From the IMG/VR virus record IMGVR_UViG_3300025895_000123: a stretch of 64,000 bases of DNA; one strand, 5' to 3'. The translations under genes were made by a program, and so were the position numbers. Source of the DNA: a virus. Shown here in pieces: positions 1,236-64,000 of the stretch (position 1 is its first letter; every line of letters begins with the position of its first letter). The notes under the pieces were generated by a model. The model worked only from the letters and a program-made list of their open reading frames with translations. It searched no databases and was not told the origin of the DNA.

Positions 1236-1748
1236 TTACGCCGTTAATTGTACTTGAGACACAGGTATACCCGATGTTTGTTTTCGAATATTACCTTCTC
1301 GTTGCCATCTACTCGCTATACCCGCTAATTTTCTAAGAGTTAATGATCCAAGAACACCAAGAGCAGCAGCACCTATTAATCCTGTTGCTATTGCAGTACC
1401 AACAGTAGGTGCTAATCCAATAGAAGCAAGCAATCCTGCTACTCCGCCAATATATGCTCCCATTCCTGCACCAACACCAGCACCTTGTTTCTTAGCAACA
1501 GTATCGACTTCATTGAGATATTGCTTAACATCTTTATCTTTTAGTGATTTAAGAATTTTTTGTTTGTCTTGAAAAGACATTTTTTTACCAGATGTTAAAG
1601 TTTCGCTTAATGCAATGAATTCTTGAACAGATGGTTTCTCAATTAAATCTTCAATTGGTCTACCTATAAAAAATCTTTTCATTTTACTTAACATGCCCTC
1701 GAATAATAAGTATTCTTCGTCTTCAAATAGGTATGCAGTTGGTATCAT
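1236..1748 (-). CDS. MIxxxxLFE-tag protein with Gly/Ala-rich hydrophobic segment (putative internal virion protein)
   Basis: Starts MIPTAYLFE; glycine-zipper-like GAGVGAGMGAYIGGVAG segment. Confidence 0.6.
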   Translation of the reverse strand: MIPTAYLFEDEEYLLFEGMLSKMKRFFIGRPIEDLIEKPSVQEFIALSETLTSGKKMSFQDKQKILKSLKDKDVKQYLNEVDTVAKKQGAGVGAGMGAYIGGVAGLLASIGLAPTVGTAIATGLIGAAALGVLGSLTLRKLAGIASRWQREGNIRKQTSGIPVSQVQLTA

Positions 1749-6692: not shown

Positions 6693-8726
6693 TTAAACAG
6701 CTTCTAATGCTTCTATTCTAGATGTTAAGTCATCAATCACAGCTTGTTGAGAAGTAATCAAAGTTTGTTGATCAGTAGATAACGTTGATAACTCCTGCAC
6801 TGATTTAATTAAAGGTGCTATAAACTCTGAATATCTCATACCAAGCATAGGTTCACTCTCACCAGTTTCTGGTACTGCTTTCTCTGGATCTGGATCAGGT
6901 GCTGGAGGTGGAGTCCATCCTCCAGGATATTCTGTCACATATGGATCTATGTATCCAGCAAAATCTACACCAAGATCATCCATTACAGTTTTAACTTCTT
7001 GTGCTATTACACCTTGATGAGGTCTTGTTCCATCATTCCACTTATAAGTCACTGTATTAAGTCTATCAATAAAATCTAATCCAAGACTGTCACCAAGTAC
7101 AGTTTTCAATCTACTATCTGAACTATTAATAGACGTATCTGTTGCCCAAACATCTTTCCAAAGATTAGCAGATCGACCAAGAGACAGATTATTACTAGGA
7201 CTAGGCATAAATGCAGGAACACTTGAATCAATTCCTATCCATCTAGCAGTACCACCAGAGTCTTTAGCAAACGCCCACGTATCACCACCCAAACGCTGAT
7301 TTTCAATATATATGCTATCATTAGAACCTTGACCGCATTTAAAATAACCATATACTGATCCAGCGGAATTCTGGAATCCAATAGTTGGATCATTACCGTC
7401 CTTATCCCAAACAACTATTCCATCAGCAGTAGTACTAAATGCTTTTCCACCAGCATGATATAATGCTACTCTATGCTCACCATAAAAATCAGCACACAAC
7501 TGATTTACAGAGGATTGATCATTTGCTTTAATTTGAACAGGACTATCATCTCTGTTACTACTTATAATAAACTCACTATCATTTACATAGATATAATCAG
7601 TAACATCATCAGTAGTATTATGGAAACCAAAAGATGGATATACTGCATCTTCGATTGTTAATCCCCATGGATTAGTAAATGCTGACTTAACACCATCATG
7701 ATATAGTTCGACAGCCCCATTTAAATTTGCTACTATACCGCTTTCTTCACCTGATCCAAGTAACATATTTAGTGCTGAAGAGCTGTAATGTATTCGCCCA
7801 AGTTTAGCTGAAGCTGAACTGTAGAATGCTACGCTGCAATCTGTACCCGATGTATCAAATAACTCAATACCGTAAGAAGCTGTTCCTAACATTTTGACAT
7901 TATCGTGATACAAATCAACAGCACCATTTGCATTCCCTCTAAGTACTGCTTCATCTGCTGAATTATTTATTCCAACTAGAGAAGAAGATGCAAAAAATCT
8001 ACCAAGTAATGCATCTACATCACTATATAAATTAATATATGCATCAGATCCAGAATTATCGTGCACAGCAACACCATTAGCTGCTGTTTCAAAAGACTTA
8101 GTTCCTGCATAATTAAGTTCAACAGAACCACCACCTGTAAATACACCTGAAACATAATCATTACCCTTAAGAGTAACTGTATTAGCAGGTTGGCCTATTG
8201 TAATATTTGTATCTTCTAACAAACCAATTCTTTGTATAGTAGCTGTTAAGTCAAATACATCATCTCCATCAACTGTAGCTTTAATATCCCCTGTACCAGT
8301 ATCAGTTACTTCGAGAGAACTATTTCCTTCTTCTATTAAACTTGTAACACCAGGAGCAGATAACTCTTCAGCAATATCTATGAATATAGCACAATCACCA
8401 ACCGTTAATGATCCAAATGTCACTGTGATCTGATCGTCCGTATCGTAAGTAATATTCGAAGGCGTTATCAAATCTCCAACATCATCATAACATATAACTA
8501 TTAATTGACTACTATCTAAATTATGAGTAATCACCCAAGATGTTGAACCTGTCGGTTGGTTATGAATATGTCTACGAGTTCTATTTGTTATTGGATACCA
8601 ACTGAGCAACCCGTCAACATCTGTGAAAACATATAATATATCATTAACAAAAACTAAACGACCTTCACTAGGACTATCTGGGAAACTAAGTAATGATGGT
8701 AAGACTGCTCCATGTAATTTAACCAT
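6693..8726 (-). CDS. Tail fibre/spike with C-terminal peptidase S74-type intramolecular chaperone
   Basis: SSDSRLK autocleavage motif, GVIAQEV, RYSEFIAPLIKSVQEL and terminal coiled coil; four V(E/D/A)LY(H/A)xxxK repeats; N-terminal WVITHNL module. Confidence 0.85.
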   Translation of the reverse strand: MVKLHGAVLPSLLSFPDSPSEGRLVFVNDILYVFTDVDGLLSWYPITNRTRRHIHNQPTGSTSWVITHNLDSSQLIVICYDDVGDLITPSNITYDTDDQITVTFGSLTVGDCAIFIDIAEELSAPGVTSLIEEGNSSLEVTDTGTGDIKATVDGDDVFDLTATIQRIGLLEDTNITIGQPANTVTLKGNDYVSGVFTGGGSVELNYAGTKSFETAANGVAVHDNSGSDAYINLYSDVDALLGRFFASSSLVGINNSADEAVLRGNANGAVDLYHDNVKMLGTASYGIELFDTSGTDCSVAFYSSASAKLGRIHYSSSALNMLLGSGEESGIVANLNGAVELYHDGVKSAFTNPWGLTIEDAVYPSFGFHNTTDDVTDYIYVNDSEFIISSNRDDSPVQIKANDQSSVNQLCADFYGEHRVALYHAGGKAFSTTADGIVVWDKDGNDPTIGFQNSAGSVYGYFKCGQGSNDSIYIENQRLGGDTWAFAKDSGGTARWIGIDSSVPAFMPSPSNNLSLGRSANLWKDVWATDTSINSSDSRLKTVLGDSLGLDFIDRLNTVTYKWNDGTRPHQGVIAQEVKTVMDDLGVDFAGYIDPYVTEYPGGWTPPPAPDPDPEKAVPETGESEPMLGMRYSEFIAPLIKSVQELSTLSTDQQTLITSQQAVIDDLTSRIEALEAV

Positions 8727-10951: not shown

Positions 10952-11167
10952 TCATTTCGCTTTATTGTAAGCTCTTTGAAGTAATTTCTTTCCACCAGAT
11001 ATATGAGCGAGTTGTCTTCTTGGATCTTGGGAATCAAACCCTTTCTTTAATAGAGCTTTACCTAATACAAAATCTTTATTACCAAGTTTCTTTAAAAACC
11101 TATTTCTTTTGATTTCAATTGGTTCCCAATCTTTTTCGCCTTCAAACATATTAATTACAGATATCAT
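10952..11167 (-). CDS. MIxxxxLFE-tag small basic protein (putative internal head protein)
   Basis: Starts MISVINMFE; Lys-rich. Confidence 0.65.
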   Translation of the reverse strand: MISVINMFEGEKDWEPIEIKRNRFLKKLGNKDFVLGKALLKKGFDSQDPRRQLAHISGGKKLLQRAYNKAK

Positions 11168-11179
11168 TTTTGATTGTCC

Positions 11180-11401
11180 TTATCTAGATGCTAGAGTCTT
11201 TGCTCCACGATAAAAACCTCTTGATCTTATAATCTTTTTTGGAATACCAGTACCATAGTTTTTATCAGCCTTCGTTTTTAATTGATCCCTTATATACTTA
11301 GTCTGATCTTCTTTACCTAAATGTTTAGACATACGATTCAATTTAGTTTGAATCATCCCAAATTCTCTTTTCTCAAATATTGTAGTTGTTAATGAAATCA
11401 T
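11180..11401 (-). CDS. MIxxxxLFE-tag small basic protein
   Basis: Starts MISLTTTIFE; Lys/Arg-rich. Confidence 0.65.
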   Translation of the reverse strand: MISLTTTIFEKREFGMIQTKLNRMSKHLGKEDQTKYIRDQLKTKADKNYGTGIPKKIIRSRGFYRGAKTLASR

Positions 11402-11422
11402 CTTAATTCTCCGGCAAAAAAT

Positions 11423-11659
11423 TTATTCTGTCTTTGATCCTCTTCGTTTCAGTTTAGATGAAGCTTTGAGGTAAACTAAAGATGCTTTATCATTTTTTCC
11501 TAAAAGTCTACCAGCGTCTTTCGCAAGTTGATTACCAATTAATGTTGTAACTGGGTTTGCTTTAGGATTCTTACTTACAAATTTTCCTAATGATCTATAA
11601 ACTTTAGTTCGTTCTTTACTAAGAATTCTTTTCTCGAATAAAGTAGATAATGAAATCAT
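11423..11659 (-). CDS. MIxxxxLFE-tag small basic protein
   Basis: Starts MISLSTLFE. Confidence 0.7.
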   Translation of the reverse strand: MISLSTLFEKRILSKERTKVYRSLGKFVSKNPKANPVTTLIGNQLAKDAGRLLGKNDKASLVYLKASSKLKRRGSKTE

Positions 11660-12057
11660 TAGACCTTCTCCATAAAGTAATTTGTGCTCATTAATTTCTT
11701 CTCTGATGTTAGTCTGTATGTTCCAGGAAAAATACCTCTAAGAATTAGAATTGCATCGACATTCTTCTCCTCAAAATCACCTTTGAGATCAAATGATCCA
11801 ACTTTATCTCCTTTGGCAAATTTGAAATCAGGATTCTTTTTAGTTTTGAAATGTTCTTCTTTAGTTGCAAAATCTATACCAACAGAGAATTTCCCCTTTT
11901 TGTTGATGTTATCTCGTCTCACACTTAAATGATGGCTTTCACCTCTTTTATATTCTAGAGCAATCCAATATGCTATTTTATCAGGATCATCCAAATATAG
12001 ATGGGCTCTACCACGAAGTAACAATTTAGCTTCAAATAAAGTAGACAATGGAATCAT
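11659..12057 (-). CDS. MIxxxxLFE-tag protein
   Basis: Starts MIPLSTLFE; 132 aa. Confidence 0.7.
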   Translation of the reverse strand: MIPLSTLFEAKLLLRGRAHLYLDDPDKIAYWIALEYKRGESHHLSVRRDNINKKGKFSVGIDFATKEEHFKTKKNPDFKFAKGDKVGSFDLKGDFEEKNVDAILILRGIFPGTYRLTSEKKLMSTNYFMEKV

Positions 12058-12069
12058 TTGATTATCCTT

Positions 12070-12780
12070 TTAAACGTTTACTGTTGGTGATCCAAAAGGT
12101 ACATTAGCTAAACGTTTTTCTTCTTTTCTAACTTTACGCTTATTCAATCCTTGAGCATAATCATATTCACCACTATCTTTTCTGATACCTTCTAATCCTT
12201 TTCCTACTCCATATGCTTTAGTGGTGTAATTTGCTAGGTCCTTTTCTCGTCTTAATATTTCAGGAGTTGTATGCTTACCTACTACTTTCCCTTTTTTCTC
12301 GTTATAGAACCTTGTTACTTTATCTTTATTTCTAACAGTTAGTTCATCAGCTTCATGTCTACGAAGTAGTGCTCCTTCTCTATCTAACTGTTTCTTACTT
12401 ATAATATCAGATCTTCCTTTAAGAGCTAACGGATCTGAAAACTTAGAAATCCTTCCACTCTTCGGCCAGATTATGGTTGGTTTCATAGTCATTGCTTTCT
12501 CTGGAGTCATACCAGGAATCATCATCGCGGTTGTATGTGGGTTTCCTCCTGGTTGAATAGCTCTTGGACCAACTGTATCGGCAAATTCTGATTTCTTAAA
12601 CTTAGAACCTGTACCCTTTAATTTAAAAGCTGTACCTTTATCAATACCCTTCATATATTGTCGCTCAGAACGGATCATTCCTTTACTTTTCAGATCCTTT
12701 ATCCCCTTTCCGCTGATTTTACCAGCAGCAATCATTTGTTCTGCCTTCTTTAACTCGAATAAACCAGATGTAATGATCAT
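12070..12780 (-). CDS. MIxxxxLFE-tag basic protein
   Basis: Starts MIITSGLFE; 236 aa, Lys-rich. Confidence 0.7.
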   Translation of the reverse strand: MIITSGLFELKKAEQMIAAGKISGKGIKDLKSKGMIRSERQYMKGIDKGTAFKLKGTGSKFKKSEFADTVGPRAIQPGGNPHTTAMMIPGMTPEKAMTMKPTIIWPKSGRISKFSDPLALKGRSDIISKKQLDREGALLRRHEADELTVRNKDKVTRFYNEKKGKVVGKHTTPEILRREKDLANYTTKAYGVGKGLEGIRKDSGEYDYAQGLNKRKVRKEEKRLANVPFGSPTVNV

Positions 12781-12791
12781 TTTGATTGTCC

Positions 12792-13184
12792 TTATTCACC
12801 ATACAAATATTTATTTGGGGAGACTGATCCTACTTCAGCTCTAGACATATTATGCCCACCTTTTAATTGATCTATTGGTTTACGTCCCTGAAGCTGTCTT
12901 CCAATATTTGTCGATTTAGATAAAGCTGTCCCTTTCGCAAATTTTATACCGGCACTTGCTGCTACCTTTCCAGTAGACATTGCCGACTTTAACTTTTCTC
13001 CAAATGTTGGTTTTCTTTGACCAAACACAACTTCAGGAGAGACAGTATTGAAATTCATACCTTTTAAACTTTTTCGCAAATTCGACAAATTCTTTCTTTT
13101 GGCACTAACAGAAACACCTTCAATCTTTTTACCAATTTTTTGTTTGAGTGTTTTTATTTCAAACAAATCAGATACAGGAACCAT
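12792..13184 (-). CDS. MIxxxxLFE-tag basic protein (start revised from 13259 to 13184)
   Basis: Internal ATG at 13184 gives MVPVSDLFE, preceded by AAAGGG RBS and following the upstream stop at 13189. Confidence 0.65.
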   Translation of the reverse strand: MVPVSDLFEIKTLKQKIGKKIEGVSVSAKRKNLSNLRKSLKGMNFNTVSPEVVFGQRKPTFGEKLKSAMSTGKVAASAGIKFAKGTALSKSTNIGRQLQGRKPIDQLKGGHNMSRAEVGSVSPNKYLYGE

Positions 13185-13188
13185 AATA

Positions 13189-13398
13189 TTACCCTTTCTT
13201 GAACATAGCTTTGGATGTATTAAAGATCCACTTAGCTTGATCTTTCGAGAAACCACCATTATCCTTACATGATTTCTTCATACCTACAGCCATATCATGT
13301 ATCTCTCCACCCTTCTTTTTAGTGGCGCCAATTATTGCGTTTAATGTACCCTTTGCATTCTCTGTTGCATCTTCAAATAATGTAAGTATACTAATCAT
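13189..13398 (-). CDS. MIxxxxLFE-tag small protein
   Basis: Starts MISILTLFE; GGAGG RBS. Confidence 0.7.
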   Translation of the reverse strand: MISILTLFEDATENAKGTLNAIIGATKKKGGEIHDMAVGMKKSCKDNGGFSKDQAKWIFNTSKAMFKKG

Positions 13399-13409
13399 TA
13401 TTTCCTCCT

Positions 13410-13619
13410 TTATCTTAACCTATGAGCAGGATTTCTCTTCGCCAAATTTTTAGCACCAACCACTAATGCATCTCTTTTCTTACCAAATGGCATATTCATT
13501 GCCTTCTTTAACATTCTATTTGGTACACGTGATTGTCCTAATCCTGGAAATGAAGAATCTAATCTACTCAAAAATACATCTTTCTCTGAGTACTCAAATA
13601 AATCACTTATAGAAATCAT
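13410..13619 (-). CDS. MIxxxxLFE-tag small protein
   Basis: Starts MISISDLFE. Confidence 0.7.
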   Translation of the reverse strand: MISISDLFEYSEKDVFLSRLDSSFPGLGQSRVPNRMLKKAMNMPFGKKRDALVVGAKNLAKRNPAHRLR

Positions 13620-13807
13620 TCTTCGCTCTCCTCTTGATCAATCCTTTTTAATGTATCAGTTGCGAAATATTGTCTTGTCGCTTTACATTCATCACAACGT
13701 ATGTTTCTAATTGGTTTAGTTGATTTCTTAACTTCTACAATAATTTTCATTCCACATTTTATACATTCAAATTCTCTTTTCATTAATTCTTTTGGGCTTA
13801 CCCCCAT
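13616..13807 (-). CDS. Zinc-ribbon protein
   Basis: CIKC..CDEC. Confidence 0.65.
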   Translation of the reverse strand: MGVSPKELMKREFECIKCGMKIIVEVKKSTKPIRNIRCDECKATRQYFATDTLKRIDQEESEE

Positions 13808-13821
13808 TTTACACCATCCTA

Positions 13822-14076
13822 TTACTTATTTACTCCCATTCTAGAAGAAGCTAGACTTGGTTTTTGAATTCGGCCAGGAATTGATTTCTTATTGAGACCA
13901 ATTGGAGCACTAGCTAGACTTACATTTGGTTGTAATCGTTTTCTATAGTTTTGTGGACCTAAAGTAGATCCTAGGTATCTTTCATTGATAGACCAATCGA
14001 TCTTTGGATTGCCTAGATCTATTGCTTCACGATCTTTTAAATCATTCGCTTCTATAATATTAGTTATACAGAGCAT
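13822..14076 (-). CDS. Small protein with degenerate tag (MLCITNIIE)
   Basis: 84 aa; N-terminus ends in IIE at the same spacing as the family tag. Confidence 0.55.
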   Translation of the reverse strand: MLCITNIIEANDLKDREAIDLGNPKIDWSINERYLGSTLGPQNYRKRLQPNVSLASAPIGLNKKSIPGRIQKPSLASSRMGVNK

Positions 14077-14088
14077 TTTAGTTTTTCC

Positions 14089-14517
14089 TTAGTTTGGCAT
14101 ATTCTCTATCTGATCTATTGTATCCTTTGTCTCTTCTTTTAGAGCTTTAAGTTTAGAAACTTTAAATGTTTCTCTCACTACAATAACCGTTCCCCCTAAG
14201 GAAACCGTAAACGTACACCAAGCTATGAAGCCATCCATCGCGACTTTAAAGAAACCGGTAACGTCACTAGCCGCCTCCGGATGTTTGATTACAAAGTCCA
14301 TAAACTCATTTCGCATACCGAACAGTTTCCAAAGGAAGAACAGTGACGTTAACAGTGGAAAGAAAAATATAAGCATCTTAGCAGAAGAAAAATTCTCTAA
14401 CATCTTCTTTATAAACGCCCGCCAATAAGGTATTAATAAATCTTCTCTTCGATCTTTTCCCGATCGTCGTTCACCTCTACGCACTAACGATTTTTCTTGT
14501 TTTCCTTGATCAATCAT
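14089..14517 (-). CDS. Two-TM membrane protein (holin-like candidate)
   Basis: Two hydrophobic segments, basic N-terminus and charged C-tail. Confidence 0.5.
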   Translation of the reverse strand: MIDQGKQEKSLVRRGERRSGKDRREDLLIPYWRAFIKKMLENFSSAKMLIFFFPLLTSLFFLWKLFGMRNEFMDFVIKHPEAASDVTGFFKVAMDGFIAWCTFTVSLGGTVIVVRETFKVSKLKALKEETKDTIDQIENMPN

Positions 14518-14734
14518 AATATAGTTCCTTACATATAAGTTAACACTTTTAATTATTGCAATAATATCAATAGGGTAGAGATGTATAGTCCTAATTGTTA
14601 TGTATGACTATTATATCGAACTTTTAAGAAATAGTAATATAGGTTTTTAGTAATCAATAATTAAAAGAGTAGCTTCTTTATCGATAGAATATTTATAATC
14701 CTTTTGTTTTGGAGCGTCATTTACCTTTTATAGA

Positions 14735-19977: not shown

Positions 19978-21099
19978 TCACTCTCTAATAGTGTCCAGAG
20001 TTATACAATGAAACCCACCTGCGAATAACCTCTTATGACGTAATCTAACTGGGATAGGAGTAAACCCTTTTTTCTCTAATAATCTGATCAAAGGTGTATA
20101 TTCTTTGTTAACAATAATTTTGTTCCCATCTATTGATAGAACATTAATATCAATATATTTGCTAGCCAAAATTAAGTCATCACTATCATAAGAAGTAATC
20201 TCAATTGGTTCTGGGGCATCTATAATATCCCAATTATGCAAAAAATGAGGAAGCACATCTATATCTTTAACTGTTTTTCGATTTACTAACAACGTACCTT
20301 CTTTAAGCGGCATAATTGCACTATCAATATGATTATCACATAACCAACAAACATGTATGTTGAAATCTCTACCTAAACATTGTTCTAACCATTTTATTCC
20401 AAGTAAATGGTTGGTATTTGAAACATTAACAACAATATCTTTATTAAATCGAAGACACTGAGCTGCATCTAAAAATATTTCATAACCTATGTCATAGTAT
20501 GTTTTCTCTTTTGGATATCGTGATAAATCTATATCCTTTTTAGACTTGATATAACTTAAATCGAATGAATCATCCAATAACATAGGTCTCGGTGCACAAA
20601 TCCACTTAGCACCATTCTTAAAATACTCCATAAACAATGGTTTTAGAAGATCATTCTCAAAATATCTAGTTCTTACTTGAACTGCTGTTTCAATAATCTG
20701 ATTATCTATTATTAATACTTGGTCTCTAACATTAAGAGCAGGAACAGTTAATGCTTTCCAATGAGGGGTTTTAAAATTTTGAATTTGATCCATAACTACT
20801 GGTCTTTTGACTTTAATATCTTCTTTTTCTAATATTTTTACAAAATTTTCAATGTCTTCTTCATGTTCCTCAATATGTGATTTTTTAATACTTTTTGAAT
20901 AAGAGTTATCACTAAAATAAATATCCCCACCATATAAATCATTATAAATATTATCGTGAAAGAATATCTTAAATGATAAATCTAAATTTGGAAGATTTGC
21001 ATTGATTGAATTTCCCACTATAACTTCTCGAAGTGGACTCCATTCGTTAACACTATGAATCATAATATTAGAGACCTTTTCTAATTTAGATATTTTCAA
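19978..21099 (-). CDS. Amidinotransferase (glycine/inosamine-phosphate amidinotransferase family)
   Basis: NEWSPLREVIVG, NVRD, HIDS, INVLSID, GGFHCITLD with catalytic Cys. Confidence 0.88.
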   Translation of the reverse strand: MKISKLEKVSNIMIHSVNEWSPLREVIVGNSINANLPNLDLSFKIFFHDNIYNDLYGGDIYFSDNSYSKSIKKSHIEEHEEDIENFVKILEKEDIKVKRPVVMDQIQNFKTPHWKALTVPALNVRDQVLIIDNQIIETAVQVRTRYFENDLLKPLFMEYFKNGAKWICAPRPMLLDDSFDLSYIKSKKDIDLSRYPKEKTYYDIGYEIFLDAAQCLRFNKDIVVNVSNTNHLLGIKWLEQCLGRDFNIHVCWLCDNHIDSAIMPLKEGTLLVNRKTVKDIDVLPHFLHNWDIIDAPEPIEITSYDSDDLILASKYIDINVLSIDGNKIIVNKEYTPLIRLLEKKGFTPIPVRLRHKRLFAGGFHCITLDTIRE

Positions 21100-63418: not shown

Positions 63419-64000
63419 ATGACCAATAATAATAAACCACATGATTATCTTCTCACATTTTGGTTTACCGGAGGAAATCCTGAACATTTAATATCCAGAG
63501 GTCTCAATGAAGAAAAGGCTTTACAATTAGCAAAGGAAATTAAAGGTAACCTTCCTGAAAATATTAAGATTGAGAAGTTATCAGATATTCTTAAAGTTAC
63601 AACCAAAGAAGTAACTATACAGGAAATTATGAAAACTAGCTTCTCTGAAGATCATTTGATAAATTCAATTAATCTCTTTGAAATTATGATCATTCAGGGT
63701 AAAATTCATCTCCAAAAATTTCTAGAGATTTTCTCCCCATATGGGTATTGTAAAGGAAATGATGATCATGATATAGATTTGCTTAAAACAGCTAATTTTC
63801 AACTCGCACCATCATCAGCAGAAGAATCATTATCTGGTGAATTTCCAATGATCAATTTTGGACTAAGATTTCTTCCAAAAAAGAAACAACCTTTTGGTCA
63901 CGATAATCATAGATACTATATAATATCTCAGAGAATTGGTAAAGTAGAAGAGTACAAAAGACGAATTATGTTTAAATCATTTACTGGAGAAGATATTAAG
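63419..64000 (+). CDS. Hypothetical protein, runs off the window end (not in ORF track)
   Basis: AGGAGG RBS, ATG 63419 (MTNNNKPHDY..), frame open to 64000. Confidence 0.65.
   Translation, partial: MTNNNKPHDYLLTFWFTGGNPEHLISRGLNEEKALQLAKEIKGNLPENIKIEKLSDILKVTTKEVTIQEIMKTSFSEDHLINSINLFEIMIIQGKIHLQKFLEIFSPYGYCKGNDDHDIDLLKTANFQLAPSSAEESLSGEFPMINFGLRFLPKKKQPFGHDNHRYYIISQRIGKVEEYKRRIMFKSFTGEDIK

Follow-up and report, generated by a model that had tools for sequence, protein, structure and literature searches.

A short N-terminal MIS..LFE tag on basic proteins of an uncultured marine phage, a likely counterpart of the T4 capsid-targeting sequence

The viral record IMGVR_UViG_3300025895_000123 is represented here by a stretch of 64,000 nucleotides (the window), which covers nearly all of a metagenomic source contig of 65,199 bp. 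The window belongs to a very divergent tailed marine phage that is deep-branching, uncultured and without a cultured relative. Nine tandem open reading frames (ORFs) at positions 10952–14076 on the minus strand, and a tenth at 1236–1748 on the same strand, encode proteins that begin with a common short tag, MIS..LFE in its commonest form. We consider it likely that this tag is the lineage's counterpart of the capsid-targeting sequence (CTS) of phage T4. That is, it would serve for docking on the scaffold and be removed by a gp21-type cleavage, so that basic cargo is kept in the head and some of it is ejected. The principle, a capsid address combined with prohead cleavage, is textbook T4 biology; this tag and this cargo set are new. 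Sequence comparison adds the point that a single cargo domain bears many lineage-specific leaders, all of which appear to be joined to it through the protease motif.

A Shared Tag on Ten Basic Proteins

An earlier note, made from the letters of the window, had described the ten ORFs and proposed a capsid-targeting and cleavage signal. All ten are present on the minus strand. The nine of the array encode proteins of 69–236 residues, are tightly packed, and are each preceded by an AGGA-type ribosome-binding site; the start that the note assigned to the MVPVSDLFE protein, at 13184, suits this packing, as it lies 4 nt past the preceding stop. The consensus of the ten tags is M-[ILV]-[SPIC]-x-x-x-[LMI]-[FI]-E. 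All end in L/M/I-F/I-E, with the Glu at residue 9 in nine tags and at residue 10 in MISLTTTIFE. A permissive pattern for the tag, searched over the window as a regular expression, matched 10 of 921 candidate starts, which are exactly the ten named ORFs, versus 2 of 340 in the reversed sequence. Nine tagged genes out of ten in a row is thus far beyond chance.

The codons of the tags differ synonymously (TCT/TCA/AGT, TTA/TTG, TTT/TTC, GAA/GAG, and ATA/ATT/ATC). The tag is thus conserved as a peptide, and a DNA repeat is ruled out. Past the tag Glu, no pair of window proteins shows significant BLASTP similarity. The description of the proteins as otherwise unrelated therefore holds inside the window, with one qualification: the proteins of 10952–11167 (71 residues, basic, MISVINMFE/G, where the slash follows the final Glu) and 13410–13619 (69 residues, MISISDLFE/Y) are distant paralogs, connected only transitively through proteins of relatives. 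The note's further statement that the mature parts are rich in Lys and Arg agrees with the whole-protein isoelectric points (pI), which run from 9.4 to 10.7 in the ten tagged proteins versus a median of 6.1 in the 62 other ORFs (Mann–Whitney p = 2e-6).

Tagged Proteins in Related Lineages

The ten window proteins have no significant match in PHROGs or Pfam, and IMG/VR searches with protein patterns, with an exact DNA word, and with alignment patterns gave no relatives. The largest array cargo, the 236-residue protein of 12070–12780 (MIITSGLFE/L), has two homologs, P0002 and P0003, with 45–47% identity and the starts MLTVSDLFE and MISISAVFE, respectively. The contigs that encode these homologs (35.8, 122.7, 158, and 306 kb) show synteny to the window, and on them, too, tagged ORFs form arrays, though in different sets. 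A scan of JGI data and homolog look-ups yielded the further lineages L011, L021, and L024. The resulting set has 47 tagged proteins from six related uncultured lineages, as follows: the window, L007/L017, L009, L011, L021, and L024.

Of these 47 proteins, 46 have I or L at position 2 and 44 have S, P or A at position 3, while all of them have I, L, V or T at position 4. An [LIMVF]-x-E ending falls at residues 9–12 in 40 tags, at residue 9 in 28 of them, and four tags have Asp instead of the Glu. In T4, a CTS with Asp at position 10 is blocked in cutting while targeting and packaging are intact (PMC9026906). By analogy, the proteins with the four Asp-variant tags may enter the head and keep their tags. 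In the relatives' 12–20-kb loci, no tag was seen on ORFs outside the arrays.

The cargo, of 57–267 residues, is varied. By BLASTP, the 38 tagged proteins of the first five lineages make up at least 19 families, 11 of which are singletons. The tagged gene sets differ among the window, L007, L009, L011, and L021. Two tagged proteins are enzymes: a GNAT acetyltransferase (L007:11378-11845) with the start MIPVSNLFE (Pfam score of 27 bits, above the cut-off of 20.7), and a NUDIX hydrolase (L021:15789-16328) with the start MLSIQRLFE, identified from precomputed Pfam results. Among the other members of the window array, all on the minus strand, the 73-residue protein of 11180–11401 (MISLTTTIFE/K) has its ortholog at L011:10414-10635, and that of 11423–11659 (78 residues, MISLSTLFE/K) at L009:690-920. 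The 132-residue protein of 11659–12057 (MIPLSTLFE/A) is a singleton with no family and no usable ESM Atlas match. It is followed in the array by the 236-residue protein described above and by a 130-residue protein at 12792–13184 (MVPVSDLFE/I). The note had included the 84-residue protein of 13822–14076 as a weaker member, with the tag MLCITNIIE/A. It is a genuine one, as its orthologs at L007:9295-9486 and L011:9281-9502 begin with MISITKIIAE and MISITKLFD, respectively.

An untagged ORF also lies inside the array, at 13616–13807 on the minus strand. It encodes a Zn-ribbon mini-protein of 63 residues and overlaps the start of the next ORF. This gene is kept within the tagged array of three lineages, being found also at L007:9491-9679, where it has a weak match to Pfam Zn_ribbon_Elf1, and at L011:9511-9711. 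In L024, three Zn-ribbon mini-ORFs (7625-8092) are immediately upstream of the tagged array.

The A2 Family and Its Junction with the Leaders

The best-conserved tagged member is the 69-residue protein encoded at 13189–13398 on the minus strand (MISILTLFE/DAT), which consists of the tag and a 60-residue domain. A profile search gave 60 homologs of 67–112 residues, here called the A2 family. The domain is predicted to be a three-helix bundle (predicted local distance difference test score 81), and its fold has no meaningful match in BFVD, the best E value being 1.1. The mature domains align throughout, whereas the leaders, of 9–53 residues, are of at least six unrelated kinds. These are MIS..LFE; MKLYPERLNRDF... 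(34–41 residues); MDKE.IKKAL.FEND... (45–53 residues); the T4-like MGFKQFYTE and MATWKEF...; MDLMEMAESWL..LFE; and MDKKRYLSVAISHALIAE. Immediately before the domain, there is a Glu at P1 in 59 of the 60 proteins and L, I or M at P3 in 55 of the 60, while the residue between them varies (D, N, F, A or T). This pattern matches that of T4 gp21, which cleaves after L/I-x-E (PMC9026906).

In relatives, A2 homologs are found in the head module. The order of genes in L018, a T4-like contig of about 240 kb, is Portal_T4, a 64-residue ORF, Peptidase_S77, the A2 homolog, a 206-residue ORF, a 190-residue ORF, the scaffold T4_CASP, and Gp23. The Peptidase_S77 protein matches the head maturation protease family phrog_207 with an E value of 2e-57, and the capsid protein has 33–35% identity to cyanophage gp23. 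The 206-residue ORF has the same 30-residue leader as the A2 homolog, ending in MLVE/G. A 53.6-kb JGI contig is laid out in the same way, six small ORFs separating the protease from the scaffold. A2 homologs and S77 proteases are paired on at least seven contigs, some of just 3–13 kb (matched by identical longest-contig sizes). L019, a T4-like marine contig of 152 kb that includes gp13, gp15, terminase, and tail-tube genes, has its A2 homolog within an array of eight adjacent ORFs with T4-like CTS starts. This array (L019:6801-11059) lies between the terminase and the sheath and tube genes. The starts are MRNWKEYLIE (twice), MKTWKEYLNE, MAKFKKFLKE, MAKFKHFLTE, MGFKEYLTE, MGKFKTFLTD, and MRFKTFYEN, the last on a Pfam Tad6 protein; they are close to the MKTYQEFIAE of T4 ipII and ipIII.

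The T4 head module has the gene order 20-67-68-21-22-23. In the T4-like contigs, the A2 family is like T4 gp67 and gp68 in being among the small ORFs that separate portal, protease, and scaffold; in contrast, the A2 gene of the window is outside a head module and has the short tag. Homology of A2 to gp67 or gp68 was considered and rejected, as the BLASTP E values of 0.39 and 43 are not significant and gene position is the one likeness. Some A2 homologs are, again as a parallel to gp67, fused behind a leader resembling the 64-residue ORF at the gp67 position. This ORF (L018:8988-9182), in the interval between portal and protease, recurs as the leader of the A2 domain in P0033, P0051, P0057, P0060, and P0061. 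Its recurrence points to fusion and fission of prohead-core genes.

The A4 Family and Leader Exchange

The tenth tagged protein, of 170 residues (1236–1748, minus strand), starts with MIPTAYLFE/DEEYLLFE/G and so has two cut-type sites; its C-terminal segment is hydrophobic and rich in Gly and Ala. The protein, of the A4 family, may be a membrane-active ejection protein. The family is widespread, and there are 34 representative homologs (P0184–P0217) with less than 50% mutual identity, most of which have MI(S/P/A)..LFE-type starts, and many of those with such starts have a second hydrophobic-x-E about nine residues further on.

One A4 homolog, P0197, is headed by MDGKKYLSVAILETLLVE, and the same leader, as MDKKRYLSVAISHALIAE, is on the A2 protein P0014. 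Thus, the same A2 domain is found with at least six leaders, and the same leader is found on different cargo, from which it follows that leaders track lineage and cargo is exchangeable. We tentatively extend this to a broader proposal, which we regard as possible though somewhat short of probable. In a large uncultured marine group related to T4, leaders would be lineage-specific, interchangeable addresses that co-evolve with scaffold and protease, with cargo domains moving freely among them.

Comparison with Known Systems

The CTS MKTYQEFIAE is described on the T4 internal proteins IPI, IPII, and IPIII, and the ip loci of T-even phages are described as polymorphic (Mullaney & Black 1996; Repoila et al. 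1994, cited in PMC9026906, PMC3012670, PMC12373910). Packaging requires no more of IPIII than its first ten residues, of which 4 and 7 matter in targeting and 8 and 10 in processing (PMC9026906). The T-even internal proteins are diverse and basic, resemble each other only in the leader, and were discovered by it (PMC3012670, PMC12373910). T4 internal proteins specifically inhibit type IV restriction enzymes (PMC12373910).

The MIS..LFE proteins have several features in common with this system. In both, a leader of about ten residues with a hydrophobic-x-Glu end is carried by small, basic, otherwise unrelated proteins encoded in clustered, variable arrays. In both, enzymes carry the propeptide, namely Alt in T4 and the GNAT and NUDIX proteins here, and Asp variants occur at the cut position. 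On the other hand, a single array holds about ten members, as opposed to three in T4, and the lineage is a deep-branching, uncultured marine one. The T4-likeness of the tagged lineages themselves is suggested by four points, as follows. The window has matches to distal long-tail-fibre proteins; sugar genes and the A2 family are common to the window and L018; L024 encodes a gp5-like hub and a UvsX-like gene; and a faint Gp5 match is present on another A2 contig.

In the phiKZ-type cleavage motif, P3 is small (S/A/G), and phiKZ-type propeptides are long, with no shared short tag. The P3 residue of the tags is instead L, I or M, as in T4. The double LFE sites of the 170-residue A4 family are nevertheless like the redundant sites of the phiKZ type. 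In the phiKZ-like giant phages, which have inner-body and ejection proteins, the N-terminal propeptides of many head proteins are cut after Glu by a diverged gp21 homolog (phiKZ gp175, SPN3US gp245), and the sites are redundant (PMC9026906).

A Proposed Role of the Tag and Its Alternatives

We propose that the consensus M-I/L-S/P-I/L/V-x-x-L-F-E, of nine to ten residues, is an address. The hydrophobic N-terminal half of the tag would dock the nascent protein on the prohead scaffolding core. During head maturation, a gp21-type (Peptidase_S77) protease would cut after hydrophobic-x-Glu and remove the tag. The trimmed proteins, small and basic, would then be retained alongside the DNA inside the head, and at least a part of them would exit with it at infection, as do T4 IPI–III and Alt. 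Any gene gaining the tag would become cargo, which would lead to a fast-changing array of unrelated proteins. It follows that the window's own phage is expected to have an S77-type protease, and anti-defence action of the cargo is conceivable. The comparative evidence that favours the note's reading of a T4-type signal with a different tag is the L/I-x-E end, the portable leader, the head-module context of A2, and the A2 junction.

Several observations weigh against this proposal. Neither in the window nor in the contigs of relatives that were walked was a prohead protease, scaffold or major capsid gene of the lineage itself seen; those contigs had radical-SAM (S-adenosylmethionine) genes upstream and only small ORFs downstream. 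Nor was the lineage's own protease found among the best 120 of 4428 S77 matches; the S77 protease was seen only in relatives with a homolog of one tagged protein, namely L018 and the 53.6-kb JGI contig. The array is among tail-fibre and accessory genes, outside a head module. Nucleotide and protein searches with the array, the 236-residue member, and the A2 family showed that no cultured phage encodes these proteins, and hence there is no virion proteome for them. The L-x-E-D of the A2 junction could in part reflect conservation of the domain and not a cut site. Lastly, MIS..LFE is unrelated to MKTYQEFIAE except for the hydrophobic-x-E end, so that the tag would be CTS-like in function and not the T4 CTS itself.

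An alternative that keeps the address is that the tag targets the prohead core, but that the proteins are structural or DNA-condensing, being degraded, expelled or kept for charge neutralisation, and are neither injected nor anti-defence proteins. The place of A2 beside the protease, which is that of T4 gp67/gp68 and is kept across many T4-like lineages, is unlike what is expected of arms-race cargo. Moreover, all the members are rich in Lys and Arg, and lysines of the T4 internal proteins contact DNA phosphates (PMC3012670). The turnover of genes between lineages, seen in the 11 singleton families among 38 proteins, and the tagging of GNAT and NUDIX enzymes are better suited to delivered accessory cargo, and we therefore consider a purely core role unlikely.

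We give still less credence to the idea that the tag is a leader recognised by a modifying enzyme such as a radical-SAM protein, with one maturase acting on many precursors as in ribosomally synthesised and post-translationally modified peptides. Radical-SAM genes are indeed plentiful and sometimes adjoin the array (L021:7704-9245, L007:7555-8256), and in the L007 lineage there are six or seven in a row upstream. However, this adjacency is inconsistent; no radical-SAM match turned up beside the array in the window or in L011, although not all of the ORFs beside these two arrays were scanned against domain libraries. In addition, the cargo is without Cys-rich cores and includes folded enzymes, and nine residues is very short for recognition by a maturase. 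A2 swaps its leaders yet retains the protease-type junction and adjoins the prohead protease.

Finally, some other N-terminal signal (for membrane targeting or secretion, a degron or a translation-enhancing 5′ coding element) is most improbable of all, even though the tag is hydrophobic and strictly N-terminal: it is too short for a secretion signal and is without a positive n-region, cleavage or lipobox features, the synonymous codon variation speaks against an mRNA element, the tag-like stretch of P0012 and P0014 is preceded by 8–10 extra residues, and the head-module context of A2 points elsewhere.

Other Features of the Window and Its Relatives

Tail-fibre and S74 tail-spike genes are also present in the window, as are genes for an acyl carrier protein, a two-component system, and a sugar pathway, three genes of which are collinear with genes of L018. 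The array is headed by a membrane-protein gene at 14089–14517, and in the 217-nt gap upstream of this gene there is one copy of the T4 late-promoter word, TATAAATA, at 14690–14697 on the minus strand. The word is not enriched across the window, and promoter and terminator scans were not above chance. An amidinotransferase-like protein with 39.5% identity to a protein of Campylobacter phage CP220 is encoded at 19978–21099 on the minus strand. In the plus-strand block, the ORF at 63419–64000, whose full length of 221 residues is found at L001:6686-7351, contains an internal tag-like LINSINLFE, which was judged to be probably due to chance and not a true tag.

In relatives, the six or seven consecutive radical-SAM genes lie on the 306-kb ENA contig; they are located before the L007 region, upstream of a two-component system. 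Downstream of the tagged array of L011, an ORF of at least 2364 residues (L011:13110-20201) runs off the locus.

Significance

Phage proteins that are injected with the DNA act ahead of any phage gene expression. Where a phage cannot be grown, a recognisable address tag would allow such proteins to be predicted from sequence; the window phage has about ten candidates and its relatives have dozens, of which two are enzymes. The swapping of leaders by A2 provides natural data on the requirements of a capsid address, which is relevant to the loading of cargo into phage heads. If the broader proposal of interchangeable addresses holds, the ejected proteome, GNAT and NUDIX proteins included, would be predictable in sequence from MIS..LFE and its sister leaders, and it could be searched for new anti-defence or host-takeover proteins that act early in infection.

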